From the IMG/VR virus record IMGVR_UViG_3300044724_003649, positions 1 to 30,190 of that record: a stretch of DNA of 30,190 nt. One strand, given 5' to 3'. The notes under the pieces were generated by a model, which had not been told where the DNA came from, did not search any database, and saw only the letters and a list, made by a program, of their open reading frames with translations. Of this stretch, positions 5,182 to 30,190 are shown one piece after another. Source of the DNA: a virus. Its lineage: Duplodnaviria; Caudoviricetes. A program made the position numbers and the translations under genes. The first letter of the stretch is position 1. Each line of letters begins with the position of its first letter.

Positions 5182-5598
5182 CTATGAAAGATCAGTTGAA
5201 TACTGGCAATGCATAGTAGACTGTAGGTTGTGTTCTTTCATTACACTTGGTTTGTAATTTAAAACATTATCATCAACCATACAAACATTATAGTATCTTT
5301 GTTCGCTATGGTCTATAAATGTTTTTATCAAAACGAGCGATGTGGATAACTTAGTACTTAACTTGGCCGTCCAACCCATCATAAGGGGTATTGCTACGGG
5401 ACAAAACCGGTTTTCTTCTAATAGTTCCCAAGGCGTAGGCCACCGTTGAGAATTCCACGGATCTAAGTTTCGATCAATTACCGGCGCAGTTTTCCACAAG
5501 TCAACAATATCCTGCAAAGGATTTTTAGAATGTGTTAAACTTTCTCTAAATTCGCGCCAAAGAGTAATGCGTTCGTCGGTATCGGTTTCTAAAAACAT
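5182..5598 (-). CDS. Hypothetical phage protein, 138 aa
   Basis: Coupled by TAATG to the upstream tail-type gene; WPTPWELL motif. Confidence 0.75.
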   Translation of the reverse strand: MFLETDTDERITLWREFRESLTHSKNPLQDIVDLWKTAPVIDRNLDPWNSQRWPTPWELLEENRFCPVAIPLMMGWTAKLSTKLSTSLVLIKTFIDHSEQRYYNVCMVDDNVLNYKPSVMKEHNLQSTMHCQYSTDLS

Positions 5599-7253
5599 TA
5601 TGCAAAGTAACTAAATGCGTATGTTAATGTTCCTGCTCCGTTGCCGATTAAGTTTTTAAATTGAACCTTAACAGTTTCACTTCCTGTGGTACTATCAAGA
5701 TCATCAAGTATTGCACCAAACTCTACACCACCGTCCGAACTTCCTGTATGACTGTATGAGTCTGTAACATTAATGTTGGAATTATCTTGAACTGTGATTG
5801 TAAGTCTACCTGCTCTTGTAGTTGCACTACCTGTAGTCTTAATTAGTTTATAGTCCATGTAAGCAATCTTTTTATCTGTAAATGGTAATTTAGTAAATGT
5901 TTTAAATGCATCTGACTCAGATAGTTCGTAAGTGTTTACTCTACCTTTAGTATAATGATAACCTTCAATGTTTGGCTTATACGGAATTTCTTCATTTGCA
6001 GTAAGATTAATTATTGAATCTCTTTCAAATGTATCACCAATCGATTCACAAAGTGTTTCATTAAAAAGAATAACACCTGTTTGAGGATTATCTTGGCCGT
6101 TCATATTGTTACCAACATCAAGAAATACATTACCTGTAGAAATGTGTCCAACTGGATTCATTGTGCTTACTGGTTTGTGAACAGCAATACCGTGATCATT
6201 AATTCTATCAAATTTATTATTTCTAATAATAAAATTTTGCGGTCCTAAAGCCTGTGCACCTGATCCTGAACTAGTTCTGCCTAGGTCAATACCAACATGT
6301 AAAAAGTCTAAAATACTGTCTGCAATAGTAACAGTTCTTGTATCATGAATACTGTGAATACCGATACTTAAATCTCTAAAGGTACAATTAGTAATGTGTA
6401 AGTTTTCTGTTGTTGTTGCACCTAGTCCTCTTAGATCAATACCTATCTGCGAAGCATCTAGTTGTTCGTCTTTTGTCCATCTACCTTGGAATAAACAATC
6501 ACTAATGGTACTATCTGTTGTGTTATCTATTCTTACTAACGGTGCATGTGGTGTAACATTTTCTGCAACAGTTAATGTAATACCTTGAATAGTAATATTT
6601 CTTGGTCTTGTACCGTTTTGAATATTTTGAAATGTAATATAATTGCCAGGTGTACTTGTGCCGTCAATAGTTTCGATCATGCTTTTTGCTGTGTGAGCAC
6701 CTTCAGCAGGATCTAAATTCAATTCAATAATAGTTTTATTTTTACCATCACCAATTATATTAGCAAAAGGTGGAATGTAAATTGTATTTGTTACTTTGTA
6801 TTTTCCTGCATCAATTTTTAATGCAATTCTGCTTCTTGCATCAGATTTATCAGAACTGTTAATAAACAGTTCATCAATAGCACGTTGGATTGCACTAGTA
6901 TCATCTGTAATGCCATCGCCTTTAGCACCAAAACTTCTAATGCTAACAATGTCATCTAATCTTTGTTGTAGTGTTCTTGTTACAGGACTGTTTACAAACT
7001 CGCCTGTTTGTTTTACTGCTTCAGTCGTACCTTTATATGAATACTGCTCGAGCAAATCAAAGATGTTACTTTTAGATGTAAGTATCTCTGTGTTGCCTAC
7101 TGCTGGTGCACCTTCATTTACTGCACCATTACCTATATATAATTTTTGTGTATCGATTGCCCAACCTAGTTCGGCGCTGGCTAACTGAGGGATTCCGTTC
7201 TGGCCCTCTTTACCTCTACGATGCTGAATTTTTGATATTTGTACAACTGCCAT
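5598..7253 (-). CDS. Virion tail/baseplate-associated protein with pectate-lyase-like beta-helix
   Basis: N-terminal KIQHRRG..LASAELGWAIDTQKLYIGNG anchor motif; VSIRSFGAKGDGITDDTSAIQRAI beta-helix cap; repeated I.NC.F-type strands. Confidence 0.8.
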   Translation of the reverse strand: MAVVQISKIQHRRGKEGQNGIPQLASAELGWAIDTQKLYIGNGAVNEGAPAVGNTEILTSKSNIFDLLEQYSYKGTTEAVKQTGEFVNSPVTRTLQQRLDDIVSIRSFGAKGDGITDDTSAIQRAIDELFINSSDKSDARSRIALKIDAGKYKVTNTIYIPPFANIIGDGKNKTIIELNLDPAEGAHTAKSMIETIDGTSTPGNYITFQNIQNGTRPRNITIQGITLTVAENVTPHAPLVRIDNTTDSTISDCLFQGRWTKDEQLDASQIGIDLRGLGATTTENLHITNCTFRDLSIGIHSIHDTRTVTIADSILDFLHVGIDLGRTSSGSGAQALGPQNFIIRNNKFDRINDHGIAVHKPVSTMNPVGHISTGNVFLDVGNNMNGQDNPQTGVILFNETLCESIGDTFERDSIINLTANEEIPYKPNIEGYHYTKGRVNTYELSESDAFKTFTKLPFTDKKIAYMDYKLIKTTGSATTRAGRLTITVQDNSNINVTDSYSHTGSSDGGVEFGAILDDLDSTTGSETVKVQFKNLIGNGAGTLTYAFSYFA

Positions 7254-10114: not shown

Positions 10115-10490
10115 GATCTTTTTTATTAAATTTAATACTATTTGGCAAACCAGGCTTTTTGTTAATTGGCTCTAGTTCTACTTGATCACCGGCTACGGCT
10201 TTAACTTTGAATTTTTCAGGTCTTGCTGGATTGTCAGCGTTTGGCACATCAATTTCTTGCCCACGCATAAATTTGGCTTGATCCATTTTTTGTGAAGCAT
10301 TATTACCAATTGGTGGTGTTTTATCTGTAGTGTTTTGTGCATTAGGATCTTGTCCAGGCTTAACTGTACCAACAGTACCTTGAGGATCTCCGGACTTTGT
10401 GTCTTGTGTTCCTACGCCCGTTTTATTCTTTTGTTGTAGAGCAGTTTTGGCACTTACTGCTAATGGTATACCTAGTTCACTAATTCTCAT
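10104..10490 (-). CDS. Hypothetical protein, 128 aa
   Basis: TAATG coupling; MRISEL N-terminus; flexible Q/T/K/P-rich linker. Confidence 0.75.
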   Translation of the reverse strand: MRISELGIPLAVSAKTALQQKNKTGVGTQDTKSGDPQGTVGTVKPGQDPNAQNTTDKTPPIGNNASQKMDQAKFMRGQEIDVPNADNPARPEKFKVKAVAGDQVELEPINKKPGLPNSIKFNKKDLAQ

Positions 10491-10828
10491 TATCTTGCCT
10501 TCTTTGCACGTTTAATTGGTTTAGGAGTCAATGCTCCTTTGGATTTGTTTAGGTTGGCAACTGTTCTTGAAATTGCACTGCCCTTCTTGGTCATTTTAGC
10601 ATGCCAAGCCGCCTTCTTAGGTGCCCTTGCTCTAGTAACAGTCATCCTTTGTTTTGAGTCTACTTTAACTGGAGCATGACAAGTACTAATATTAGCAACA
10701 ATACGTCCTTTACGTGGGCCACTCATACAACGAAACTTACGTGATTGAACACGCCCTTTATGTGTACCGCCTTTACCGCCGCCACGTTTGTAAATTGTAT
10801 CTGCTTCTAAAAGTTCTACTATCTTCAT
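10490..10828 (-). CDS. Highly basic protein with RCxxGxRxGRIV..C motif (paralog 1)
   Basis: RKFRCMSGPRKGRIVANISTCHAP; K/R-rich. Confidence 0.75.
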   Translation of the reverse strand: MKIVELLEADTIYKRGGGKGGTHKGRVQSRKFRCMSGPRKGRIVANISTCHAPVKVDSKQRMTVTRARAPKKAAWHAKMTKKGSAISRTVANLNKSKGALTPKPIKRAKKAR

Positions 10829-11103
10829 TTTCTTTTATTCAAAAACTTTAATGCTCTACTCGCTGGATTAGTACGTTTGGTACGCTTTGATTTCATTGCC
10901 ATACGCTTACCTAACTTCTTGCGAGTGATTTTCATTCTAATCTTTTGTTGTATGTTAGGTGGAGCAAAACACTGTGCAGGATTAGACACAATACGTCCAT
11001 GACGTTTTCCGCCACTGCAACGATACTTGCGAACTAGTTTCTTACCAGTTCGACCCCAAATCTGTTTCTCCGTGAGATCTTCAAATAATTCTACTAACAA
11101 CAT
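10825..11103 (-). CDS. Highly basic protein with RCxxGxRxGRIV..C motif (paralog 2)
   Basis: RKYRCSGGKRHGRIVSNPAQCFAP; TAAATA 5 nt upstream of the ATG. Confidence 0.75.
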   Translation of the reverse strand: MLLVELFEDLTEKQIWGRTGKKLVRKYRCSGGKRHGRIVSNPAQCFAPPNIQQKIRMKITRKKLGKRMAMKSKRTKRTNPASRALKFLNKRK

Positions 11104-14735: not shown

Positions 14736-14799
14736 AATAACCTCTAACAATATTTAGTGAATTTTATGGTAAATATCTTAAACAAGAGCGGAGGGCAAA

Positions 14800-15408
14800 A
14801 TGACTATTGTTGATTTTATAATAGAACAATTAATCACTTGGTGGCAATTTACTGTCGTTGGTGTATTAATAATTATAGGTTATGTGATTAATTTATTTGG
14901 TGTTGATCAAGATAAACCTATTGTAAATCTAAAGTATGAAGGAATGCCGTCAATGATTCCTATTAGAATACCCACAGCAGGAAAAGGTTTCTGGGGTGCA
15001 ATTTGGATGTGGCTTACAGGTGTACGCACATGGGAAATTGGCAAAGATTGGCATTTTTCAGTAAATGGGGAAGACTATGTAATACCAAAAGGCTTTGTGT
15101 TTGACGGTGCAAGTGTTCCTAAGTTTTTAGCATCATGGCTATCACCAGTTGGTGTCTTGCTAGTTGGCGGATTAGTACATGATTACGTTTACAAATATAC
15201 TGTGCTACTCAAGTACGGTAAAAAGTCTGCTTCTAATGTAATGAATCAAAAACAAGCAGATGAATTGTTCCGTGATATTAACATTGAACAGAACGGTTTT
15301 CACTTTCTAAACAACTTGGCTTACTGGGCATTACGCTTAGGTGGTTTTGTTGCTTGGAACGGTCACAGAAAAAGAAACTGTGATTGGAAAGAGTCGATGA
15401 AAAAATAA
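14800..15408 (+). CDS. DUF1353-like protein with N-terminal membrane segment
   Basis: IPKGFVFDGASVP, LVHDYVY, ADELF and ALRLGG motifs; GGAGG RBS. Confidence 0.8.
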   Translation: MTIVDFIIEQLITWWQFTVVGVLIIIGYVINLFGVDQDKPIVNLKYEGMPSMIPIRIPTAGKGFWGAIWMWLTGVRTWEIGKDWHFSVNGEDYVIPKGFVFDGASVPKFLASWLSPVGVLLVGGLVHDYVYKYTVLLKYGKKSASNVMNQKQADELFRDINIEQNGFHFLNNLAYWALRLGGFVAWNGHRKRNCDWKESMKK

Positions 15409-18076: not shown

Positions 18077-18388
18077 ATGACTGACTATACAAAACAGTTC
18101 GCCGAAATGGCAGAACAAATGCAGAAAATGGCTGAGCAATTCAAGCCACAACTTCCAGAAGTAAAGTTTAACAAGAATGGTTACGAGATTCGTACACAGG
18201 TTCTTGATATGGCTAAATCTTTTACAGAGTTTGAGTTCTCGCAAAAATGGATGGGGTTTGAAACTTCAACAAAGCGTGATCCACACACTGGACAGATTAT
18301 TTCTAAAGTGGATGCACCTGAAATTCCAGGCGTAGACAAAGTGTTAGATACTGCTGAGAAGTTTTACGACTTTATCAATAAGCGTTAA
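18077..18388 (+). CDS. Hypothetical phage protein, 103 aa
   Basis: AAGGAG RBS; NKNGYEIRTQVLDMAK..AEKFYDFI. Confidence 0.8.
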   Translation: MTDYTKQFAEMAEQMQKMAEQFKPQLPEVKFNKNGYEIRTQVLDMAKSFTEFEFSQKWMGFETSTKRDPHTGQIISKVDAPEIPGVDKVLDTAEKFYDFINKR

Positions 18389-18445: not shown

Positions 18446-19132
18446 CTAGTAATGAAAAAAGAATACTTGATTTCTACGAACTTCTTTTTGCCAACGATCT
18501 GATTCAAGTGCCATACCGTGATATATTAAACTAGGAAAAACTACTGCCCTGTTGAATTTACTAGGCATGTGACCTCCCTTTATCCATCTATCTTTAGGAC
18601 TCCATGGATCGCTATGTTCACTGTTTCGTTCTGCACCTGATCTAACTGCACTATCGAAACCATGTTGTGCAATCATTTTAGGCATGCCTGCTCTATGATA
18701 TAGATTAGTACCTTCGCAACCTTCTTCGTTAAGATATATTAGTGCTGTCCAGCCATGGTCAAGATGTGGCCACCACCAATGTGTTTCGTGTTTATCAAAT
18801 TCTGGATCTAATACTGTAAATGTATTTGTAAGGATTGTGTGTCCTTCATTTTTGTATTCCTTTGCCCCGCATATCTTCGCCAGGGTAAAAGCAACACCTT
18901 CCATACCAACATGAGTACCTGTATGACGTCTATCTGCAAATGCTTTACCATTTAGACTGTTTGGTTCTCCTTCTTTGAACAGCGTATACTGACATTGTGT
19001 GTCAAGGAATTCATTAACACCTTTTGGATCAGCATAAAAATCATCTATTTGCCAATAGTATCTTTCGTAATACGGTAATTCAATCTTCTGCACATCGGCT
19101 TTGGAATTCATTAGAAAAGGATTTTGTGTCAT
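18446..19132 (-). CDS. DUF6445-like 2OG-Fe(II) oxygenase-fold protein
   Basis: IDDFYADP, PHLD (HxD), ALIYLN, GTNLY, FNRAVVF..YHG, RRNQVFF. Confidence 0.8.
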   Translation of the reverse strand: MTQNPFLMNSKADVQKIELPYYERYYWQIDDFYADPKGVNEFLDTQCQYTLFKEGEPNSLNGKAFADRRHTGTHVGMEGVAFTLAKICGAKEYKNEGHTILTNTFTVLDPEFDKHETHWWWPHLDHGWTALIYLNEEGCEGTNLYHRAGMPKMIAQHGFDSAVRSGAERNSEHSDPWSPKDRWIKGGHMPSKFNRAVVFPSLIYHGMALESDRWQKEVRRNQVFFFHY

Positions 19133-19156
19133 GATAATATTTAATCTCTCATGAAA

Positions 19157-20434
19157 TTAAATTAATGCAAGTTGGTATTTTGCAAGTAACGCAGGATCAT
19201 CTATAGAACATTTTGACTTAATACCTAGCCCTTGTATTATACACAACCAACTAAACACATCGTACCATTGCCAGTTGTTTTGTTTAATATAGTCAAATTC
19301 ATTTTCTACAATTAGTTTTTGATATGTTTTGTCAAACCATTTAGCATTTTTTTGGTTTGTCCAAAATTCTGTATTGCTGTTAGGATTATCAATATAATGT
19401 AATTTAAGAAAGGTTCTTATTTCATGTGCTGATTTGTATAGTTCAGCATTAAACTCGTCAACTGTCATACTAGAAGCAAACACTCTGTCTAATAAATCTA
19501 GTTCTGTTATTGTAAATTCTATGTTAGTTGCTTCCATTGGCTCTACAAAGTGTGCTGATAATCCTATTGCTATGACATTTCCCTTCATAATATTCTTTTG
19601 TACACCAACATCAAATTTTATAGTTCTAGCATCTGGAACACCTATTTCTTGTCGTGCTTGATCTGGACCGATATAACTGCTATCAAATACATATCCTCTG
19701 CCGGCACGATCTTTTGTGTGTATTGTCCAACACCAACCATATTCTTTTGCTTCTAAGATAGTATATGGACAAAACTCTTTGAACGGTTCATTCCAAACTA
19801 CTGCACTATCTACAACTCCTTTATCGTTCCAAGATTCAAAGTCGTCGTTGCCAACTAACACTTTATGAAATCCTGTGCAATCAATAAAATAGTCTGCTGT
19901 AATTTCGTGTTCGTTATCTAGTACAATACTCTTTATGTGGTTGTCGTCTCTTTTGATATTTGACACTTGCTGTTTAATAATTGTTATTTTATTCTTTAAT
20001 AGTTTTTCAAGGTACTGTGGTACAAGCCCTGCTTGCCAATGTATTGCTACACCCTCTAAACTGTCAGGCACTTGTTTGTTAACTACAAAGTTATAAAAAT
20101 TTGATAATGGTGCTACTGGTCGATTATTAGCGTATGCCCAAGTACTTACATCTAAAAACTCTTGATCATCTCTAATGTTAAAAGGATGACAATATTCTTT
20201 TTTACTAAAGTTTACATGATAAGTTGCAAGTTTTATTGCACCATTAACTTCTTTAATGTATTCCTGTAAATCTATACCTTGTCTTAACAACCATTCTACT
20301 AATCTATCTGTGGTAGATTCTCCTACTCCAACAGTTGGAATACTACTGTCGATAATAGTTACATTATGATTTTTACTCAATGACAATGCAGATAACCAAC
20401 CTGCTGTTCCGCCACCTACAATTACTATGTTCAT
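19157..20434 (-). CDS. Flavin-dependent halogenase homologue (tryptophan halogenase family)
   Basis: IVGGGTAGW, GVGEST, GAIKL (Lys at the PrnA catalytic position), FIDCTGF, GWCWTI, FVEPMEAT. Confidence 0.88.
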   Translation of the reverse strand: MNIVIVGGGTAGWLSALSLSKNHNVTIIDSSIPTVGVGESTTDRLVEWLLRQGIDLQEYIKEVNGAIKLATYHVNFSKKEYCHPFNIRDDQEFLDVSTWAYANNRPVAPLSNFYNFVVNKQVPDSLEGVAIHWQAGLVPQYLEKLLKNKITIIKQQVSNIKRDDNHIKSIVLDNEHEITADYFIDCTGFHKVLVGNDDFESWNDKGVVDSAVVWNEPFKEFCPYTILEAKEYGWCWTIHTKDRAGRGYVFDSSYIGPDQARQEIGVPDARTIKFDVGVQKNIMKGNVIAIGLSAHFVEPMEATNIEFTITELDLLDRVFASSMTVDEFNAELYKSAHEIRTFLKLHYIDNPNSNTEFWTNQKNAKWFDKTYQKLIVENEFDYIKQNNWQWYDVFSWLCIIQGLGIKSKCSIDDPALLAKYQLALI

Positions 20435-21000
20435 ATCTTTTCGAGCAGTTCTCCGGCAGTTCCTTCTACAACTGTAATACTATTAGTATCAATAACTTCC
20501 TTATAAGTTTTGTCCCATAAAGGTTGTAGTTCTTTACTGGCCGCAGGTCCTTGTCTAATACTGTCTGTTATTAAATCGTGTTCTGGATTGTGTCTTACAA
20601 AGTACACTTCGTGAAATGCTTTTGCTTGAGCAACTGCCATATCCCAGTAGTATTGTTCAAACTTTTTGTCTACCATGCCTAATTCAAATGCACACTTGTT
20701 AAACACTAGATAATCTAATGGCAAACGTTTTGTAATAAACACATCACAACTGTATTCATGCTCTAACATTTGACTCCAATGCCTATGAAACAGCCAACTG
20801 CAACTGTCAATGTTGCCACCTATTTCTTTTGCTAGGATATCGTGGTCCATAAACATTGTGCTACGAACAGTTTCAGGCATGTAAGTTACATTAACTCCAC
20901 GTTGACCAAACTTTTCTCTTTGTAGTAATTTTATACATACGGTATTTTTGCCAACACCGTGGGCACCTACTACTGCTATTCTTTTGTCTGCTACACTCAT
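20431..21000 (-). CDS. P-loop NTPase / nucleotide-kinase-like protein
   Basis: IAVVGAHGVGKNT Walker A; PETVR; KRLPLD. Confidence 0.7.
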   Translation of the reverse strand: MSVADKRIAVVGAHGVGKNTVCIKLLQREKFGQRGVNVTYMPETVRSTMFMDHDILAKEIGGNIDSCSWLFHRHWSQMLEHEYSCDVFITKRLPLDYLVFNKCAFELGMVDKKFEQYYWDMAVAQAKAFHEVYFVRHNPEHDLITDSIRQGPAASKELQPLWDKTYKEVIDTNSITVVEGTAGELLEKI

Positions 21001-21602
21001 TGCTTTAAACTGTCCTCTTGATATATCTTATCTCTATCTTGTATATCATACTGTGATATATGTGTTGCATCTAGGGTATTGATATTATACTCTAATCCAA
21101 ATATAGTAAATTTATATTTTGGTTTTGTAAAAGGTATGCTTAAATCTCTAAACCATTTTCTAACCCATTCAATGTTATCGTGAAAGAAATATATCTTTCT
21201 TAGGTGTTCGACACCTTCCCCATAGTAAACACCTATACCACTTTTAATTACATCTATTCTACTGCCTGGTGGAAGTGCAGGTAACGGATGCTGTTGTAAA
21301 TTTTGATCGTATACTTTTAATACTCTAGTTTCTTTTTTAATAAAGCATTCGATAGCATAATAATCACAAAAAATATGATAATCTTTTACTCTAAACTCTT
21401 GTATAACATCTTCGCTAGGATAAACTTCATAGGTAAGATTGATTTTTTCTTTGTTAGGATCGTAACTAATCATGTGCAAACCTTGAAAATCAAAGTCTGG
21501 CCAAACAGCCAATACCATTGCTTTGTATTCTAATGCTGACTCACTACTAGCATCTACAAATATTTCGTTGGCTCCGTCACTGCTTATTTTAGTTTCAATC
21601 AT
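20997..21602 (-). CDS. Hypothetical protein, 201 aa
   Basis: ORF overlapping both neighbours in the cluster. Confidence 0.7.
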   Translation of the reverse strand: MIETKISSDGANEIFVDASSESALEYKAMVLAVWPDFDFQGLHMISYDPNKEKINLTYEVYPSEDVIQEFRVKDYHIFCDYYAIECFIKKETRVLKVYDQNLQQHPLPALPPGSRIDVIKSGIGVYYGEGVEHLRKIYFFHDNIEWVRKWFRDLSIPFTKPKYKFTIFGLEYNINTLDATHISQYDIQDRDKIYQEDSLKQ

Positions 21603-22008
21603 TTAACATAAACTCATCTTTAAAGTAGTTTCTAATATCAGGAATAACTCCTTGTGTTTCATCAAATCCTAACCCTACACTGTTAATTATAGCATCGTAT
21701 ATTTCTTTGCTCATTTTTGAATACTTGTAAGGCACAAAGTAAGGATCATTGTTGTATAATAATTCAGGGTCATCTAGCACTTCCCAAAAGTTTTCTGCAA
21801 ACTCTTTGCTTAACCATTTTGCATAACAGATAGCAACAACAAAACTTTTGCTAGGATAAATCCAGCCGGGATCTTTCGTGAAGTATTTTACAGCATTATC
21901 AACTATTTCTTGTCCGTGAACAAACACCAACTGCTTGTCCTTAAGATCATCACCGTGTGATTGATTAAGCCTGTGATATACTTCTTGTCTTACTTTCCAG
22001 TCTTGCAT
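21595..22008 (-). CDS. Hypothetical protein, 137 aa, radical-SAM-associated
   Basis: Overlaps the 3' end of a rSAM gene; YPSKS..AICYA..DPYF. Confidence 0.7.
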   Translation of the reverse strand: MQDWKVRQEVYHRLNQSHGDDLKDKQLVFVHGQEIVDNAVKYFTKDPGWIYPSKSFVVAICYAKWLSKEFAENFWEVLDDPELLYNNDPYFVPYKYSKMSKEIYDAIINSVGLGFDETQGVIPDIRNYFKDEFMLND

Positions 22009-22906
22009 AATCTAATAATCCTTTGTACCCGTTACAACCGTTGTCTAAATCTTTAACCCATCTGTAATGTTCTGTCAAACAATTACCAAAGTATTCGCAA
22101 CTGTGACACACAGGACTGCAATTTTTAGTTGGCTCTTGCTCTGCCCATTGTTTGTATTCAGCATAGGTATCTAGTTCTAAAAAATATTCTTTATCGTCTT
22201 TGTCAAATTCTAGCACTCCAAACTTACCATTAGGAGTAATGTAAACATGATCACTAGAAAACGCATTGTATTCTTTTGCTAGACTTTCTTGTATTTGATC
22301 TTTGTTAATAAAATGAAAACGTTTAGGTGTTGATGCTTCTAACCATTTGATAACAAACTGTTCAAACTGTTTATGTGTAACTGAATAATTGTTTGCTTGA
22401 TTAATACTGTACGGCTTTATTTCTACACTGGTTACACTGCTACATGCATTGAGTCTTGTTATCATGCTCTCTACGTCCATTGCAATAACTTCAGGACTTG
22501 CTAGAATTAGTACAGCGATTGGAACAGGACTTTGTAACATATTTTGATACACACGATCGCTTTTTTCTCTTGCTTCAAAGTCATAACTTACACTTAGATA
22601 AAAGTCATTTTCAAAGAAGCCTTCATGTAGCATACTAAAGTTTGTGATAATGTTTATATCATCTCTGTAATGCTTTCTAATTACATCACGCATACCATAG
22701 AAATAATCTTTTTTAAGAGCACCTATTTCGCCGCCATACAAATCAACATGTGTGATTTTATCAACCATACGTATCTCTAGTAAACGTTCATCTAATATAT
22801 CTAAATCAATTTTGTTTTGATCAGCGAGTTGTTCTGGTGTAAGATAACAAAACTTACATCTAAAGTTACAAAAATAACTAGGATTAATTGACACGTTCAT
22901 CTGCAA
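21965..22906 (-). CDS. Radical SAM enzyme with C-terminal Cys cluster (SPASM-like)
   Basis: CNFRCKFC, YGGE, TN; C-terminal CSPVCHSCEYFGNC..C. Confidence 0.9.
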   Translation of the reverse strand: MQMNVSINPSYFCNFRCKFCYLTPEQLADQNKIDLDILDERLLEIRMVDKITHVDLYGGEIGALKKDYFYGMRDVIRKHYRDDINIITNFSMLHEGFFENDFYLSVSYDFEAREKSDRVYQNMLQSPVPIAVLILASPEVIAMDVESMITRLNACSSVTSVEIKPYSINQANNYSVTHKQFEQFVIKWLEASTPKRFHFINKDQIQESLAKEYNAFSSDHVYITPNGKFGVLEFDKDDKEYFLELDTYAEYKQWAEQEPTKNCSPVCHSCEYFGNCLTEHYRWVKDLDNGCNGYKGLLDYARLESKTRSISQA

Positions 22907-23450
22907 TATCCTTTTTAATAATTTGTAACAGTTTATTTTTACTGTATTTTGATAATAGTTTTCTAGTCAACCAATTACTGTTTTTAAACAAACCTATATA
23001 AAGATATCTATAGTCATCATAGTTTTTTAAAAACAGGTTGTTCATATATTCAACTTCTTGTTTTTTATCTTGTATGCCAACAACCTTTCCTATACTTTCA
23101 TTTGTGTTGTTAACTTGCTCTCTTATTTCAAAGTTAATGCCGGGAACATCTTGCATAGTCTTTATGACACTGTACATTCTTCCTTGTATATTATCGCCGC
23201 CAAATGCTAACATAATATACCAATTCATATTTTGTTTATTGTAGTAGTGTCCTTCGCAACTGCTTATAGGCAAATAACCTTTGTGTACAAACTCTTGCAC
23301 GTGATATTGCACACCTTCTTCTATTTCTTTGTAGAACTTCATATCAAACGGACTGGCTGTGTATGCAACATATCCTGTTTCATATGTATCATCGGGGTTA
23401 GCCGAACCATGTATTCTGCCATTTGCAAACAGTTTATTCTTCAATGTCAT
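22884..23450 (-). CDS. Hypothetical protein with SSCEGH motif
   Basis: KGYLPISSCEGH; likely start MTLKNK at 23450 after AAGGG. Confidence 0.65.
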   Translation of the reverse strand: MTLKNKLFANGRIHGSANPDDTYETGYVAYTASPFDMKFYKEIEEGVQYHVQEFVHKGYLPISSCEGHYYNKQNMNWYIMLAFGGDNIQGRMYSVIKTMQDVPGINFEIREQVNNTNESIGKVVGIQDKKQEVEYMNNLFLKNYDDYRYLYIGLFKNSNWLTRKLLSKYSKNKLLQIIKKDIADERVN

Positions 23451-24117
23451 ACCCTTTAATTTTATTCCACGCCCAATGATGATCGTAACCACAACTTGCA
23501 ATCACACTGTAACGCAGTTGATCCGTTTCATTTACTCTATGTACAAACTTGGGATTTTGATTGTTTAAAATTATCATAGTGTTATTGTCAATATCTATTT
23601 TGCCTGTGCTAACAACATCGCCTTCTATGTAATTTAAACCTTTGCTAGGTTGCCAATGCGGAAAACTGTCAGTGTCTTTGACTTGTATTTTATTTGCTAT
23701 TCCTACTTCAAACTGTCCTTGCTGTAAAGGTTGTAGATAAAATAGCAACTGTATAAATGTTCCATCGAACCCGTCCCAATGCCAGTCCATGCTAGAGCCA
23801 GGTTGCATTTTGTTAATGCTTACTTTGAAGAAACTGAAGTCTCCGTAAATTTCGTTCCAATACTTAAAGTATTCTTGTTGCAATAAGTCTTTGATTAGTT
23901 TTACATACTTGTCTTGTGATTCATAAAAGTTAAGATCAAGATCCTGATAGTCCCTATCCCATAAAGGGTTTTCAACACCTGGATATGTTCCACTACCAAA
24001 CTGTTCACTGAATACATAGCCTGCCAGATGATCAATAAACGATCTATCTATTGTGCTAGTATCATATCCTTTTTCAAAAAAACTGTTTAAGTTTGGTGCT
24101 TGTTTAATCATTTTCAT
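23434..24117 (-). CDS. 2OG-Fe(II) oxygenase
   Basis: WHWDG (HxD), LFYL, NNQNPKFVHRV and RYS. Confidence 0.82.
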   Translation of the reverse strand: MKMIKQAPNLNSFFEKGYDTSTIDRSFIDHLAGYVFSEQFGSGTYPGVENPLWDRDYQDLDLNFYESQDKYVKLIKDLLQQEYFKYWNEIYGDFSFFKVSINKMQPGSSMDWHWDGFDGTFIQLLFYLQPLQQGQFEVGIANKIQVKDTDSFPHWQPSKGLNYIEGDVVSTGKIDIDNNTMIILNNQNPKFVHRVNETDQLRYSVIASCGYDHHWAWNKIKGYDIEE

Positions 24118-25195
24118 TTACATATGGAGTAACTTCTACTCCTTCTAATCCATTTGCTTCAAGTATTTTTGGAGCAATTGATTTCATAATTTTACAATGT
24201 GCTTCAACTACATTGTGTTGTTTAAAGTCTTTGACTGTTTTTCTACAGCCATTACATATATCAAACATAGGACAAGTATAACATGATTTCTTCATACTTG
24301 CAAGTTCAAAACTATCCTGAAGTGGTGTAAAGAATTCACCATTCATTTCACGTTCAAAGTTAATTGGCTTGTCCATATCATCTCCAAACGCACCACAACT
24401 GTAATAGTCACCGCCTGGATTCATAGCACGTATGCCTTCGTCACATTTTCTATTCTGCGGACAACTTGTGGCATTACCTTTTAGTCTTTGCATCATTTGT
24501 TTGGTGTTAAATTCCCATGGAGCAAGTCCTGCTTCCCATATATCAACATAGGTTTTATATATCTTAGATAGCAAGTAAGGACGGTCCTGTTCACCACTGC
24601 TCATTGCGTAGTTAAGTTTACACTCAACTCCTGTTTTATCTTGTCTATCAAAATTATGTAATGTTCCGCCAGGCTCTAGTCCTTCGCTCATTTCCATAGC
24701 AAGTTCTACATTTTTAATTGCTAGATGATCGTTTGTATCTGTTACTACACTGATGAAGTCAGGACGATAACCGCAGTGTTCTAGCATAGCATCGCTTACC
24801 TTCCAAAAGTCTTCTACAGTAAACAAACTAAAGTCGCCCTTCAATCTACCATCACCATAGTTAAAACTTGTAGTGATTCCTACACGCTCATTGTTAAACA
24901 ATGCTTTCCATTTATTAGGCTTAACATAGAATGGCCATAGGTTTGTTGTAAGTGCTATTGATGTTGACATTTCATGCTCATCAAGATAGTCTATTATCTT
25001 CCAATAGTAGTCTGGGTCCATCATTAAAGGATCGCCGCCATTAACAATTATTGTATTTGTGTTTGGATAACGTTTTAGAAATCTAAAGATGTGTTCGTGA
25101 TCTAATACTACTTTGCCATGCTCTGCAATTTTTGTGCTTGAACAAAACGTACATTTAAAATTACAAAGTTCAGTTGGTTTAATAATTAATTCCAT
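24104..25195 (-). CDS. Radical SAM/SPASM enzyme
   Basis: IKPTELCNFKCTFC, GGDPL, TTN; SPASM-like CPQNRKC, GDYYSC, CYTCPMFDICNGC, HC. Confidence 0.92.
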   Translation of the reverse strand: MELIIKPTELCNFKCTFCSSTKIAEHGKVVLDHEHIFRFLKRYPNTNTIIVNGGDPLMMDPDYYWKIIDYLDEHEMSTSIALTTNLWPFYVKPNKWKALFNNERVGITTSFNYGDGRLKGDFSLFTVEDFWKVSDAMLEHCGYRPDFISVVTDTNDHLAIKNVELAMEMSEGLEPGGTLHNFDRQDKTGVECKLNYAMSSGEQDRPYLLSKIYKTYVDIWEAGLAPWEFNTKQMMQRLKGNATSCPQNRKCDEGIRAMNPGGDYYSCGAFGDDMDKPINFEREMNGEFFTPLQDSFELASMKKSCYTCPMFDICNGCRKTVKDFKQHNVVEAHCKIMKSIAPKILEANGLEGVEVTPYVNEND

Positions 25196-25839
25196 ACGCT
25201 TATTCCTACATTTAAAGTATATCTATTTTTAGTATTATCTTTTAGTTGTCCTACACTGTGTACAAATCGTGGATTCATATTGTTTAACAGTATCACTTTA
25301 CCATCTGATGGTATTATAGTATTTTCATTATACACTTTATCATCAGGCCATTCACGCTCTGCAATTTTTAAAACACTTCCGTATTCTTCTTTCCAATTAG
25401 GTTCGTCAGTTAGGTAAATTAAAAATCCTAGGTCATGGTCCTCAACTCCGTCCCAATGATATGCTAGTTCGTCACTGCCGTTCCACAAATCTATAAAACG
25501 TAGTTCATAGTCAAACCCGCATGTTTCTCTAAACCATTTGCTGTAATAAGTGTTATCAAACAACTGCTTGATGCTATCAACATACACTTGTGGTACAACA
25601 TCTAAACTAGAAGCACTTTTTGCTTTCTCATATTCTCTGTTGTATTCTCTATCCTGTTTAGGTGGTGTTGTTATATCTGTGTTAATGCTCCAACTAGGTA
25701 TGCTCTTATACACTGAATGCTCTGACCATTCTTCTGTGTATATTGCTCCCCATAACATTGTGCGGATGTCTTCGGGTAACGACCATTCATCATACCCATG
25801 CTTGTAAAAGTTATTCACGTTTAGCATCGACATAGTCAT
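25186..25839 (-). CDS. 2OG-Fe(II) oxygenase
   Basis: YHWDG, LIYLTDEPNWKEEYG, NNMNPRFVHSV and RYT. Confidence 0.82.
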   Translation of the reverse strand: MTMSMLNVNNFYKHGYDEWSLPEDIRTMLWGAIYTEEWSEHSVYKSIPSWSINTDITTPPKQDREYNREYEKAKSASSLDVVPQVYVDSIKQLFDNTYYSKWFRETCGFDYELRFIDLWNGSDELAYHWDGVEDHDLGFLIYLTDEPNWKEEYGSVLKIAEREWPDDKVYNENTIIPSDGKVILLNNMNPRFVHSVGQLKDNTKNRYTLNVGISVWN

Positions 25840-26812
25840 ATACCTCCGCTAACCAACAAGGCTCTTGTGTTCTAAAACTCTTTAGATGATTGCTTAGGAA
25901 ACACCCCATAGAGCATCTTTGAAAGTGTGGACACTCTAAACAGTTATAGTCTTCAAACCATTTTTGTTCCATCTCTGCTTTTGTTGGTTTGTAACCATCT
26001 AAGTCTTGTGATAGTAATATTGTACACCCGCCGGCGTCTCCACTAGGCATAATAGTAAATGTATCTTGGCAGGTCATGCGTTTCTTTTGCTTGTTAGGAT
26101 AATCTTTGAAAGGTAAACAGTTAGGATAGTTGTCTACCATAAACTTCATAAAGTCACGCAACTGCACATCATTAGGAGTCATACGCTCTCTATTCTTTTC
26201 TGGTGTGTAGTAATCAAAATATATGTCGTAGTTGTCGTATAAAAAATCAAAGAAAGGTGTAGCACGTTTTAAGAACTTTTCAATGTTAGGCTTTGTCATA
26301 ATAACATTAGCACTCTTAATATAATTCTTAAACAGTCTTACGTTCTCTTGAAACTTTTCTAACTGTCCGTAACCAAAACGTCCACTAGGATCATAACTTG
26401 TTAGCAATTTAATTTGAGGGCAATCATCTAGTAATTTTTGTAGTCTGTCTGTGCGTTCGTAAACAAAGTTTGTAGTAAAACATATTTCAACATCATAGTT
26501 GTTTTCTTTGCTCCACTTATCTAATTCATCTGCTAGATATCTGTAATCATCAAAACAACTGTCAGGAACAAGATCACTAAACACTTCACCGCCCATAAAG
26601 TGAACGCTGAACATGCCTCGGGTAGCACTCATGTTTTTAATAGCACGTTGTACAACTTCAAGTTTATCTCGTATGGTATCCATACCAACCTTGCTGTTGT
26701 GATCTTGATTACAAAACTTACAACTCATATTACACTGTTCAAACAGCGTAACAATAATTTCTCCAAGAATACTTCTCTTGTTGGTCTTTGTAATAATGTT
26801 GTGTTCTATCAT
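25811..26812 (-). CDS. Radical SAM/SPASM-like enzyme
   Basis: CNMSCKFC, MGGE, TTN; TC..IMPSGDAGGC, CLECPHFQRCSMGC, PC. Confidence 0.9.
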   Translation of the reverse strand: MIEHNIITKTNKRSILGEIIVTLFEQCNMSCKFCNQDHNSKVGMDTIRDKLEVVQRAIKNMSATRGMFSVHFMGGEVFSDLVPDSCFDDYRYLADELDKWSKENNYDVEICFTTNFVYERTDRLQKLLDDCPQIKLLTSYDPSGRFGYGQLEKFQENVRLFKNYIKSANVIMTKPNIEKFLKRATPFFDFLYDNYDIYFDYYTPEKNRERMTPNDVQLRDFMKFMVDNYPNCLPFKDYPNKQKKRMTCQDTFTIMPSGDAGGCTILLSQDLDGYKPTKAEMEQKWFEDYNCLECPHFQRCSMGCFLSNHLKSFRTQEPCWLAEVYDYVDAKRE

Positions 26813-27369
26813 TCAACTATCTCATTAAAGGTCATATTGCACACTAGACTTAATCTAGTTTCACTGCCTAGGTACGGTGTAACCTCGTGCCATACATAGT
26901 AAGGTGCGGCAACTAATAATCCTGTTTCAGGTTTAATTTCTTTGTACGGCTTGCCGGGAGCAAACGCTTTCTTGCTTTGCCAGCGTGGATCATATAATCT
27001 AAGTTTGCCACTGTCTACACTGTTGCCTGTGTCTACATAAAATATAGCAAACGCATCTATAACATCATGCGAGTGAACACCTTTGAAATCACCAAACTTC
27101 ATAGGATTGATTATGTTTAGTTCTGTCATTGTGTAGTTGCAAGGATGTCCTGCACTTTCACATAGTGTATCAAAAGCAAGTTTGAATCTGTCTTCCATAT
27201 CAGGAAAGGCAGAAAAATTTACATTCTCATCTGCAATATTAGTCACACCTGACGCTTTCATATCTGCCATTTTGGCATTGATAAGTGTTGTCAAATGTTT
27301 TTGCCATTCTTCGTCATCATCATATTGACGAGAATAGATTGGCGTTTCCCAATATGTATCAATAGTCAT
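26809..27369 (-). CDS. Putative 2OG-Fe(II) oxygenase (TIGR02466-like)
   Basis: WETPIY, HSH, IFYV, GKLRLYDPR, PETG, WHEVTP and RLSLVCN. Confidence 0.78.
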   Translation of the reverse strand: MTIDTYWETPIYSRQYDDDEEWQKHLTTLINAKMADMKASGVTNIADENVNFSAFPDMEDRFKLAFDTLCESAGHPCNYTMTELNIINPMKFGDFKGVHSHDVIDAFAIFYVDTGNSVDSGKLRLYDPRWQSKKAFAPGKPYKEIKPETGLLVAAPYYVWHEVTPYLGSETRLSLVCNMTFNEIVE

Positions 27370-27400
27370 ACTGGTATTTATTTTAACAGTTTTAGATGGA

Positions 27401-28483
27401 TTAGCCTATTGAAAAGTTTGCCAAACTAGATGAGTTTGCTTTTTTCAATTTGTAAAAATAGTTAAGAAGCAATACATTTACTTTTAATCTATCTTCAATT
27501 TCAAATGCACTTAGAGCACTGTTGATATCTTTATCTAATACTGTGTCAATATCACTGCTAGAAAGTTTAGTATCTGCTTTTTGTACAATTTTAATTACTT
27601 CTTTAGATAGTGTGCTGTCATCATCGCCGGCATCAGTACCTGACGCCTCAAACATCTTTTGTCTAAAGTCAGCAACATCAATTTTAAGACTGTCAATTGA
27701 CTGAGCATTTAAAACAAAATCAATCTTGTCGTTTGTGCCTTCTAGGGCAAAAAGATCTTCATCAAGGTTGTAAGTAACACCTAGTAAGTTTGCTACCCAA
27801 TCTTTATTGATGTTCTGTAATAAACTGCTTCTAATAAACAATGCTTCGTCCATAACCTTTTTGCTTAGGATAGCATACATCTTAATACCTAGTGCTTCGT
27901 CATAGGTATTGTTACCACCGAGTTTGTTAGCAATTAAAAACTCAATTGGTGCTTTTGCTCTAATCTTACCTGTTAGTGTTGCATTGGCTTCTACTGTTAC
28001 AGTTTTAAATAGTCCTTGAAACTTTTCTTTGTTCAAGTACTCAAATGCGTTTGCCAAGTTCTTTTGACTGTCAACGCCTTTGTTGTCACTGCCCCAAGTA
28101 AAGTCTTGTCTAGTAATTAACTTTGCTTCTGTAACATTGGCATTGTAAACTTTGTATGCATCTTCTTTTGTTATTGTTGGGTATAGTAACTTTATCCATT
28201 TAACAAATAATGTATTGTATGTTGTAGCATCTACAAAGATATCCATTGTACCTTTTGATAGCAAGAATTCAAAAAATTCTGAATCATTAGGAAACTGTTT
28301 TTCAGCACCAACTAGGTCTGCATATGAATCTACATTAAAGTAACTTTCACCTAAGTTTCTAAACTTAGTTTCAATTTGGTCTAAAAGCACTTCACTTAGT
28401 GCTGATGAAATAACACCACGTGGACGTTCCATATCCATACGGTATTCTGGCTTTACATATACTTTATCAAATAGTAGAAACAT
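27401..28483 (-). CDS. Hypothetical protein, 360 aa
   Basis: Long ORF within the cluster; MFLLFDKVY. Confidence 0.75.
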   Translation of the reverse strand: MFLLFDKVYVKPEYRMDMERPRGVISSALSEVLLDQIETKFRNLGESYFNVDSYADLVGAEKQFPNDSEFFEFLLSKGTMDIFVDATTYNTLFVKWIKLLYPTITKEDAYKVYNANVTEAKLITRQDFTWGSDNKGVDSQKNLANAFEYLNKEKFQGLFKTVTVEANATLTGKIRAKAPIEFLIANKLGGNNTYDEALGIKMYAILSKKVMDEALFIRSSLLQNINKDWVANLLGVTYNLDEDLFALEGTNDKIDFVLNAQSIDSLKIDVADFRQKMFEASGTDAGDDDSTLSKEVIKIVQKADTKLSSSDIDTVLDKDINSALSAFEIEDRLKVNVLLLNYFYKLKKANSSSLANFSIG

Positions 28484-29204
28484 TCTCTAAACTCTCTTCT
28501 TTTAACTGTTTGTATTTATTTGAATCCCACATTCCTTCAGCAACTGCATCGCTAATCAATGCCACAGTATTACCAGGAACAAACCAATAATTGTACATTG
28601 GATCGCCCTTAAACATAGGTTGCTCAAATTGTTTCGTCAAAAATTTGCGTTCATTTACAGGAACATGCGGGAATATTTCATATAGATCGTGATATTTGTA
28701 AAGATTTACGTAGTTGATGCCACAGAACTGATCATCATCGATCTTTTCAAAGCCTTCAATGCTTTTCTTAACACCTTCGTCGTTGACACAATGCAAGTTG
28801 TAAATGCTACCACTAGTAATAGCAACCATCCATTTATCAACTATTTCAACATGTTCTTCTATAAAATCTTTTGCTTCATTAAAACTTAACAGTTTGTTTT
28901 TGTACAATGCACCTTGGTTTTCGTTAATATTAGCAAGTAAAATTTGTAGCACTGTTAACTCTAGCGATGGTAATTTAACAAGCATTCTTGTCTGCATATA
29001 GTCAGCAATAAATTCTACAACTTCTCTGTGCTCTACATCTTTAAAATTAACATCACATGGGACATCAAGATTGCTTAGATAAGTTAAAAGTTTTTCACCT
29101 TTTAATGTGCTTTTACTATAATCAATTATAAATGTGATAGACTTATCTTCAAAATAAGACTTAAGGTCCTCTAAAGGAATAGGTGCAATAGTGTTTTTAG
29201 TCAT
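28467..29204 (-). CDS. Hypothetical protein, 245 aa
   Basis: TAATG-coupled to the Cys/His-tail gene; IDYSKSTLKG..LTYLSNL. Confidence 0.75.
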   Translation of the reverse strand: MTKNTIAPIPLEDLKSYFEDKSITFIIDYSKSTLKGEKLLTYLSNLDVPCDVNFKDVEHREVVEFIADYMQTRMLVKLPSLELTVLQILLANINENQGALYKNKLLSFNEAKDFIEEHVEIVDKWMVAITSGSIYNLHCVNDEGVKKSIEGFEKIDDDQFCGINYVNLYKYHDLYEIFPHVPVNERKFLTKQFEQPMFKGDPMYNYWFVPGNTVALISDAVAEGMWDSNKYKQLKEESLENVSTI

Positions 29205-29761
29205 TAACGTCTACCTCGTGAACCGTGGCAATTACTGTGACAACTGCTGTGACATCTAGTAAAGTCTTCGGCTTTAACTGTATCACGTTTTTCGTCCATC
29301 TCTCTTTGTAGATCACCAAAATAGGTTTCTAATCCAGTAACACTCACTAGATCATCTTCTTCAACGGTACTTGCATCGATACCATCGAGTGCAAGTCTTT
29401 CTGTATTGGTAAGATAAGCAACCTGCGTATCATCAAAATCAATACGAGGATTTGCTTCACCTGTTCCTGATGTTTGTGTTAATAATCTTGCTCTTTGTTT
29501 TCTAATTTTAGTATATTCAAATGCTTCACCTTCTAGTGTAGCAATTAAATCACTTGAATCAATTGTCGATCCTGAAATATCTGTTCCTGTAATACCAATA
29601 GCACGGCCAGTTGTAGTACCACCATAGACAGCATCAGGCATCTGTGTAAACGGTTTGTTGTTTGTTCCCCATACAACCTGTGTGTTATTGTGTGAAACGA
29701 CAAAATCCGCAAATCTATCCACAATATTTTGCTTTCTAATAGGGTTTGTTAGTGTAGCCAT
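29204..29761 (-). CDS. Putative modification substrate/precursor: 185 aa with C-terminal CHSSCHSNCHGSRGRR
   Basis: The only three Cys lie in the last 16 aa as (CHxx)3; gene abuts a rSAM/SPASM gene. Confidence 0.75.
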   Translation of the reverse strand: MATLTNPIRKQNIVDRFADFVVSHNNTQVVWGTNNKPFTQMPDAVYGGTTTGRAIGITGTDISGSTIDSSDLIATLEGEAFEYTKIRKQRARLLTQTSGTGEANPRIDFDDTQVAYLTNTERLALDGIDASTVEEDDLVSVTGLETYFGDLQREMDEKRDTVKAEDFTRCHSSCHSNCHGSRGRR

Positions 29762-30190
29762 CTAGTTATGTACCTTTATTAATTTCTCTGTAAACTTTGC
29801 ATTTCTTTTAAATGTATGTGTATTTATATCATCTTTTAGTTTCATCATGAGTGTTTTTGGCGAAGCACACACATCATCTTCCCATTCTAATTGGTGACAA
29901 TCACTGCCGCACACATCAAACACAGGACATTCAAAACATCTAGGATCACGTGCTGTTTCGCAGGCTATAATAGTGCGTCTTTTTGGATTGAATAACAGTT
30001 CTGCTATGGGCATATCCAGTGTTCCGTAGTGATCTTCTGGTGCTGAATTAGGGCATCCTGCTATGGTTCCATCTGCATTAATTGTAAACATCTTTTGTTC
30101 ACAGTTTCTGCACCATGTTCCTGCATCTGGAAAGCCTAGTTCAAATTTAGCATAGATGTTTTCCATAAACGTATGATAGATTTTATCACG
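29762..30190 (-). CDS. Radical SAM/SPASM enzyme, 3' part only (truncated by the window edge)
   Basis: Frame open to 30190; CRNC, INADGTIAGC, CFECPVFDVCGSDC..C SPASM pattern. Confidence 0.85.
   Translation of the reverse strand, partial: RDKIYHTFMENIYAKFELGFPDAGTWCRNCEQKMFTINADGTIAGCPNSAPEDHYGTLDMPIAELLFNPKRRTIIACETARDPRCFECPVFDVCGSDCHQLEWEDDVCASPKTLMMKLKDDINTHTFKRNAKFTEKLIKVHN

Follow-up and report, generated by a model that had tools for sequence, protein, structure and literature searches.

Radical SAM enzymes linked to an invariant Cys/His tail in large phages: a probable maturation pathway for a fibre-associated virion protein

The IMG/VR virus record IMGVR_UViG_3300044724_003649 (Duplodnaviria; Caudoviricetes), whose 30,190 nucleotides were analysed in full length and are referred to as the window, carries on its minus strand a cluster of 16 co-oriented open reading frames (ORFs; 18446-30190) that probably serves the maturation of a fibre-associated virion protein. 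Judging from sequence comparison, the C-terminal tail of this protein would be modified by radical S-adenosylmethionine (rSAM) enzymes encoded alongside. The putative substrate is the 185-amino acid (aa) product of 29204-29761 (minus strand, as all genes of the cluster), which ends in CHSSCHSNCHGSRGRR (residues 170-185). As far as gene content across related loci indicates, the real conserved core is composed of four rSAM families (RS1-RS4), the protein ending in CHxSCHxxCHxxRxRR, three further protein families (28467, 27401 and 21595, named after their positions in the window) and an upstream cupin that sits outside the window edge. The oxygenases are exchangeable between loci. This core is narrower than the list of an earlier reading of the same DNA (the original prediction). 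That reading had described 16 mostly overlapping genes in one orientation, in line with the 15 junctions counted here (12 overlapping, one abutting, two gapped by 31 and 24 nt); it had missed the three core families, the cupin, the link to fibre genes and the chromosomal copies in Bdellovibrionota.

The tail protein

In a 60-row alignment, the Cys, His and Arg columns of the tail (three Cys and three His), as well as its Ser, are invariant, although the bodies share a mean identity of just 26-30%. This is the (CHxx)3 tail noticed originally. The corresponding DNA pattern occurs in at least 120 IMG/VR stretches and gave 53 matches in genome contigs, of which 31 with an in-frame terminal tail were kept and the other 22 dropped; 20 of these 31 stretches bear Bdellovibrionota titles. 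A profile search with the tail protein collected 872 clusters at 50% identity. The strict tail is found in 136 of the best 150 and three CHxx units in 146, a retention that is partly circular because the search profile contained the tail.

Tail proteins have a median length of 187 aa (range 119-434). Their bodies contain much Thr, Ala, Asn and Gly and almost no Cys, and a hydrophobic N-terminus is lacking in 140 of 141 cases. The AlphaFold2 (AF2) model of the substrate reaches a mean predicted local distance difference test (pLDDT) score of 89, with 57-58 in the last two blocks. According to this model, the substrate is a folded body with a flexible tail and not a leader peptide. The earlier designation as resembling peptides that are ribosomally synthesised and then modified post-translationally (RiPPs) therefore suits the enzymes but not the folded substrate. 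Using Foldseek, a match to gp170 of phage Atu_ph07 was obtained (E 8e-7), with fold and tail in common at an identity of only 14%, and clear fold matches are limited to uncharacterised phage proteins. Against the PDB, no Foldseek match at E<=0.001 was found (best VIA Z 4.2, root-mean-square deviation (rmsd) 4.6, 130 aligned), which does not imply a new fold. In PDB sequence-profile searches, no match under E 0.03 was obtained with the substrate, 28467, 21595 or 27401, the ESM Atlas yielded no usable match for two proteins, and 0 of 60 tail-protein members fitted any NCBIfam model. Using hhalign, no homology was seen between the body of the substrate and the adjacent fibre families, and tblastn against cultured phages returned no match; homologs were reached there via the rSAM genes instead.

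Several variants of the family are worth recording. Three BFVD entries from one myovirus (A0A8S5USJ8, A0A8S5USJ7 and A0A8S5USV2, 504-660 aa) contain a fold similar to that of the substrate, and P0035 carries it fused behind a Gly-rich domain (larger phage proteins with the fold span 453-660 aa). In L277 (8562-9170, plus strand), P0051 and P0111, the tail deviates at its second Cys, which is either missing or displaced (CHSNHCSHSNHGSRGRR; CHSNHSNTCHSSRSRR); such tails could aid in matching enzymes to sites. An enlarged run of CHxSCHxSCHSN repeats is present in P0090 and L156. Finally, L276, a locus with about ten rSAM genes from a Bdellovibrionota sample, encodes a 104-aa variant ending in CNSNFICHSNCYTPPPKSRSRR (14794-15108, minus strand), which at this length cannot accommodate the folded body seen elsewhere and could represent a genuine precursor peptide.

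Linkage of tail and enzymes in both directions

Tail-to-enzyme counts were based on a set of 41 viral loci and 15 loci from metagenome-assembled genomes (MAGs) with full 10-kb flanks. This set was used without dereplication, and two of its MAG members resemble binned phage contigs. RS2 (25811-26812) accompanies the tail in 41/41 viral and 15/15 MAG loci, RS1 (29762-30190) in 37 and 15, RS4 (21965-22906) in 39 and 13, and RS3 (24104-25195) in 38 and 13, respectively. The 28467 family (28467-29204; 40/41 viral, 14/15 MAG) is the immediate next gene after the tail in 74 loci and could provide a substrate-binding or chaperone subunit. Its AF2 model (pLDDT 93) found no Foldseek match in the PDB at E<=0.001 (best Z 4.8, rmsd 2.7, 54 aligned), again without implying a new fold. 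The 27401 family (27401-28483, 360 aa) is present in 39 viral and 11 MAG loci if the positional analog cluster 17 is included; clusters 9 and 23 are homologous (hhalign 99.8%), while cluster 17, for which homology to 27401 was not shown, was counted by position. The 137-aa protein 21595 (21595-22008; phrog_20737) follows with 35 and 13 loci and the cupin with 36 and 6.

The reverse test started from RS3 and covered, out of 358 loci, the 80 that resembled the window most. The tail was seen in 55 of these and in 27 of the 28 with both flanks complete. The sole full-flank miss, L258, stops just short of tails seen in L071 on the same contig, and the other misses are short contigs or show a split-operon layout. 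The co-occurrence of tail gene and rSAM genes, originally put forward as a check, holds from either side, in support of a modification system that is carried by the phage and directed at the CHxx tail.

The core was found in at least 120 IMG/VR stretches, in 15 cultured jumbo-phage records, which carry RS1 and RS3, and in chromosomes of Bdellovibrionota. The gene order cupin-RS1-tail-28467-RS2-RS3-RS4-21595 is kept in RSL2, Atu_ph07, Phosso and pPa_SNUABM_DT01, four jumbo phages in culture that are unrelated. A second layout, seen for example in L008, L027 and L034, has two tandem 125-140-aa substrates straight after a fibre gene; an extra rSAM family is present five to six times, and the core operon is convergent. 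phiRP12 and RP31 also have rSAM genes, yet are absent among the phage matches obtained here; according to the PMC5468394 supplement, ORF70-80 of phiRP12/phiRP31 form a further rSAM cluster, which follows YomR-like fibre genes and is preceded by a 125-aa ORF.

The radical SAM enzymes

The three complete rSAM ORFs contain the CxxxCxxC motif (Pfam E 3e-7 to 1e-5). RS3 passes the Pfam Radical_SAM cut-off of 29.5 bits with 31.1 bits, RS4 and RS2 stay below it with 25.8 bits each, and all four ORFs match phrog_1802. The gene of RS1 is cut at the window edge, and its ORF corresponds to the C-terminal 142 aa of a complete 356-aa rSAM enzyme in the closest relative, L001 (92% identical). With the SPASM model TIGR04085, RS1 scores above the cut-off of 27 (30.8), followed by RS3 (23.1) and RS2 (14.4); for RS4, the model lies outside its best 25 matches. 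Conserved C-terminal Cys sets are visible in the alignments, of which RS4 retains only five Cys, i.e. a partial SPASM set. Apart from this refinement, Pfam, TIGR04085 and L001 agree with the earlier assignment of three complete CxxxCxxC enzymes and an edge SPASM domain.

RS3, the most conserved core enzyme, matches anSME over its full length as closest solved structure (4k36, E 4.5e-8). The closest curated rSAM models of the set are peptide or protein maturases (DarE, DynA, PapB, CbpB, anSME), all far under cut-off. Models for nucleotide- or cofactor-related enzymes, into whose clades the rSAM proteins might have fallen, were likewise not reached by RS1-RS4: scores are at most 28.9 vs 284 for MoaA, 23 vs 131 for NrdG2 and 33 vs 180 for viperin, and QueE gave no match above cut-off.

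Link to the virion and to fibre genes

The homolog gp170 was detected in the virion proteome of Atu_ph07 with eight peptides, 35.16% coverage and a mass of 31.89 kDa (PMC6102473, Table S5), which agrees with the translation of the Atu_ph07 tail gene. CDS 170 marks the beginning of a block of virion-protein genes; in the accessible part of the table, the neighbouring enzymes gp164-169, 171 and 172 are unlisted and the neighbours gp176 and 177 are listed (PMC6102473). This favours a virion protein over a secreted peptide as target, as had been proposed originally. Detection in purified particles was found for this tail-protein homolog only, and no virion protein table for RSL2/RSF1 was located. 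In the gel-based analysis, gp170 is most abundant in the top band 1, which holds proteins of 75-139 kDa, and most proteins of 27-35 kDa peak in bands 7-9 or lower (PMC6102473). Within the portion of Table S5 covered, two of 24 proteins of 27-35 kDa peak in band 1 according to a by-eye count, and the one other than gp170 has a single peptide. This behaviour fits covalent oligomers, with disulfides as an equal candidate. The sole set of eight fully tryptic peptides of at least 7 aa that gives 104 residues (35.14%) omits the tail peptide, which is weak evidence that this peptide was missing from the mass spectrometry (MS) data.

An upstream fibre family is present in 34/41 viral loci, and the 13 upstream fibre genes tested showed Peptidase_G2 matches below cut-off in nine cases and collagen in two. 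Expression late in infection is suggested by the motif TAAATA, which we take to be a late promoter by analogy to T4. It is rarer than expected in the window (23 vs 48.6 copies), and 12 of its 16 minus-strand copies lie at most 70 nt from a gene start (P 2e-10; list of 37 starts compiled here). These include sites 60 nt upstream of the tail gene (29821-29826), 30 nt upstream of 28483 (28513-28518), 6 nt upstream of 27369 (27375-27380) and 6 nt upstream of the last gene (19138-19143). The two sites named before, 27375 and 19138, are therefore indeed tied to gene starts, but 19138 precedes the last gene only, and those at 29821 and 28513 had been overlooked.

Copies in Bdellovibrionota

A sample of 301 genomes from the phylum Bdellovibrionota contained RS3 in 11 cases. 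Among eight stretches from these bacteria, three have strict and two variant tails, one ends at the contig edge beside a 28467 homolog, one stops before a tail seen in L150, and one has no tail within the stretch taken. The copies are flanked by housekeeping genes and are therefore not stray phage contigs. In a quick, midpoint-rooted RS3 tree of 15 Bdellovibrionota-type and 58 phage-type rows, from which no donor direction is claimed, two label changes were counted vs 13.9 with shuffled labels. The bacterial neighbour genes encode Peptidase_S74 in 6/6 cases. Seven Bdellovibrionota-type loci (L139, L143, L149, L159, L164, L169 and L175) also contain a stand-alone gene for a G2-chaperone-like protein of about 200 aa, which matches the end of the phage fibre in hhalign (62%) and, weakly, a phi29 appendage (E 0.2). 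Beside it, S74 proteins of about 350 aa are encoded, in some of which the N-terminus is of the pilin type.

Proposed pathway and alternatives

We infer the chemistry and purpose of the tail modification from the above evidence as follows. Late in infection, the substrate would be made from its own late-type promoter, and the core proteins 28467, 27401 and 21595 could present its flexible tail to the SAM-radical enzymes, which may then take hydrogen atoms from tail residues. Cys-thioether and/or His-N-to-carbon cross-links would thereby be closed within one chain and perhaps between chains. Given the chemistry of rSAM/SPASM enzymes, a Cys/His/Ser repeat combined with four such enzymes most likely leads to thioether and His-carbon cross-links with variable hydroxylation and methylation. 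Cross-linking as the main tail chemistry is nonetheless a candidate to which we assign somewhat less than an even chance. The cupin, the 2-oxoglutarate (2OG) oxygenases and, in other loci, extra rSAM enzymes or a B12 methylase might add variable decorations. The product could be a rigid, basic and probably metal-binding tip for attachment to a bacterial surface, a role in adhesion or metal binding that we propose tentatively. The substrate would likely be built into the virion, as its Atu_ph07 homolog is, probably together with the tail fibres.

Several observations weigh against this proposal. A 30-mer with three Cys is frequently missed by MS even if unmodified, and with 5-aa peptides allowed, the tail is included in two of eight combinations that account for the gp170 coverage. 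In L001, from the window's own lineage, the upstream genes within 10 kb encode oxygenases, halogenases and a ligase, and no fibre genes, and only 26 of 93 viral tail genes have TAAATA within 100 nt upstream. The Bdellovibrionota copies reside among housekeeping genes and lack signal peptides, which leaves their route to a surface unexplained, and one bacterial locus encodes the peptide-like 104-aa variant. The evidence for presence in the virion comes from one phage, from a preparation purified with polyethylene glycol, and from a homolog of only 14% identity, with fold and tail in common. The loading buffer, as described in the available part of PMC6102473, lists no reductant, so that band 1 may contain disulfide oligomers or aggregates.

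Alternatively, the system could produce a true RiPP with the folded body as an exceptionally long leader; the modified tail of 16 residues would then be cleaved and set free to act as toxin, signal or metallophore. The core-like invariance of the tail, the multi-enzyme tailoring set, the 104-aa variant in L276, the many CHxx repeats in P0090 and a tail peptide that probably went unseen in virion MS would all suit such a pathway. We consider it unlikely, since the body fold is retained across lineages, body peptides of gp170 occur in the virion at high mass (in the accessible part of PMC6102473), and no conserved protease or exporter emerged among the recurring clusters in Pfam scans, save the self-cleaving chaperones of the fibres; their absence from the window had been pointed out before. 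Slightly less likely still is a metal or Fe-S scaffold, for which the rSAM enzymes would build or load a metallocofactor or draw sulfur without any cross-linking. The three invariant Cys and three invariant His match this idea, multi-rSAM marine phages have been interpreted in terms of Fe-S metabolism (PMC5332604, in part), and His-iron motifs in phage fibres appear in the literature. However, oxygenases and four different rSAM families, all with CxxxCxxC intact, exceed what loading requires, and the invariant Ser and Arg fit substrate recognition. That the enzymes act on something else, such as DNA bases, a small metabolite or host proteins, with the tail gene as a linked structural gene only, is improbable: other roles have been proposed for halogenase/2OG islands of marine phages (PMC7824862, in part), and the halogenase and P-loop genes of the window show no tail linkage, yet the two-way linkage of tail and core survives operon rearrangement, recurs in bacterial chromosomes and comes without above-cut-off matches to QueE, NrdG, MoaA or viperin.

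If maturation of a virion protein tail is accepted, large phages and predatory Bdellovibrionota might share an rSAM pathway for a cross-linked, metal-binding, RiPP-like tip that recognises or grips Gram-negative prey and is diversified chemically, by exchangeable oxygenases, methylases and halogenases, instead of by sequence. This is a speculative extension. Should the proposal hold, antibiotic-type peptide chemistry would finish a virus part, phage particles would bear RiPP-grade chemistry overlooked by standard proteomics, the multi-rSAM/oxygenase clusters of marine and jumbo phages, hitherto read as Fe-S metabolism, would gain a purpose, and a common surface module would connect phages with bacterial predators. 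The analysis yields four new rSAM families and three uncharacterised protein families with a defined putative substrate, and because the cultured phages Phosso and Atu_ph07 carry the system, it is directly testable.

Accessory genes and genome setting

Three oxygenase-type ORFs pass Pfam, namely 26809-27369 (Oxy_5, PF13759, 33.1 bits), 25186-25839 (Oxy_4, PF13661, 29.9 bits, HWD motif) and 18446-19132 (DUF6445, 24.5 bits with a cut-off of 24). The fourth, 23434-24117, also has an HWD motif and remains below cut-off (E 0.005). It is homologous to 25186, to which the L001 ortholog can be aligned at E 6e-13, and the four oxygenase-fold proteins recognised earlier are all retained. At least one 2OG oxygenase is found in 34/41 viral and 8/15 MAG loci in varying number and type, and extra rSAM families, including a B12-dependent type, come and go among loci. 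Two accessory proteins have no family assigned: 22884-23501 (12/41 viral, 1/15 MAG loci) and 20997-21602 (3/41 and 6/15).

The halogenase homolog (19157-20434), likewise recognised originally, matches Trp_halogenase PF04820 at E 1e-72 and PDB halogenases including VirX1; its activity is predicted. Of the features that we assume to be hallmarks of flavin-dependent halogenases (FAD motif, catalytic Lys and WxWxIP), GGGTAG is present, AIKLA aligns with the Lys region and WCWTIH takes the place of WxWxIP. For the adjacent P-loop ORF (20431-21000), the sole family match is AAA_28, below cut-off, and L001 provides the only BLAST match at E<1e-5; its earlier designation as a kinase is therefore not established. 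Halogenase and P-loop gene each occur in one of 118 tail loci searched, that of L001 (halogenase in full-flank loci: 1/41 viral, 0/15 MAG), and DUF6445 in 0/118, which speaks against their assumed membership in the pathway. In L001, the DUF6445 gene lies just past the flank on the same contig, and the cluster is embedded in an island where a further two halogenases and four oxygenases are encoded. A halogenase search in IMG/VR, restricted to close relatives, returned no contig but that of L001. The halogenase may decorate the tail in this lineage, but is more probably a component of the halogenase/oxygenase island around the cluster. The DUF6445 protein, which has its own promoter-like site, is probably not part of the core.

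The rest of the window encodes NrdAB nearest to those of Pelagibacter and cyanophage myoviruses, PAAR and a tailspike-like protein, a predicted content that marks the source as a large myovirus. The tailspike-like protein (5598-7253, minus strand, 551 aa) adjoins nrdA and has weak matches to many tail PHROGs. Two neighbouring small, highly basic paralogs (10490-11103, minus strand) share an RK(F/Y)RCxxGxxxGR(I)V motif and lack a PHROG match, and a conserved 103-aa gene (18077-18388, plus strand) that is convergent with the cluster end and also present in L182 has no family match. Near-identical DNA is contained in estuary and marine metagenomes; contigs from two sequencing runs that are not flagged as the source cover all 30 bins of the cluster, with the whole cluster in no single piece. 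Metatranscriptome contigs from two runs match parts of it, e.g. 29376-29776 with 22 differences; as such contigs cannot demonstrate transcription, nothing was inferred from them.

Comparison with known systems

In the literature searched, which excluded subscription journals and bioRxiv supplements, neither a description of the system nor an rSAM maturation pathway for a virion protein was found, and no curated family was found for it. In a T4-like genome of marine origin, 12 rSAM genes were noted and read as Fe-S metabolism (PMC5332604, in part), and rSAM genes are merely listed in the available parts of PMC11898562, PMC8066314 and PMC5468394. The term "radical SAM" does not occur in those of PMC10769870 and PMC7824862. 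The neighbours described here carry the self-cleaving chaperone types of phage S74/G2 chaperone fibres and of the MAT fibres of Bdellovibrio (PMC10769870, in part), but at about 350 aa and with some pilin-type N-termini, they differ from the MATs of about 1000 aa.

Among rSAM systems, the CXXX-repeat system (target TIGR04114, maturase TIGR04115) also combines a Cys at each fourth residue with an rSAM maturase; here, in contrast, there are only three repeats, an invariant His, an RxRR end and a folded body. Full-length RS1 of L001 scores 34.8 vs 350 with TIGR04115, which is absent from the listed matches of RS2-RS4, and TIGR04114 matched 0/60 substrates at E<=1 and not P0090. The His-Xaa-Ser system (HxsA-D) shares His-x-Ser units and paired rSAM enzymes, but has a period of three instead of four with Cys. 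The window enzymes score 26.9 vs 267.9 for HxsC and 14.9 vs 370 for HxsB, and the repeat that defines HxsA is lacking.

Sactipeptides, ranthipeptides, triceptides and darobactin/dynobactin are approached through the sub-cut-off models named above, and the conserved maturases cluster with the precursor as in RiPP pathways. Unlike these, the present system has no short leader-core precursor, recognised RiPP recognition element (RRE) domain or conserved protease/exporter, and the substrate homolog stays in the virion; Pfam gave no RRE/PqqD match in the window proteins, and the 28467 model has no clear fold match. QhpD/QhpC, in which rSAM thioether maturation acts on the gamma subunit of quinohemoprotein amine dehydrogenase, likewise combine an rSAM/SPASM enzyme and an oxygenase on the Cys of a small protein that stays in a larger assembly. 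That system relies on one rSAM enzyme and gives an enzyme cofactor, whereas four core rSAM enzymes, a CHxS repeat and a virion protein are involved here; RS2 scores 16.3 vs a cut-off of 453 with TIGR03906 (QhpD), and no dehydrogenase genes are among the recurring neighbours. Taken together, the enzyme class is known, while the substrate class and its apparent role are the new part.

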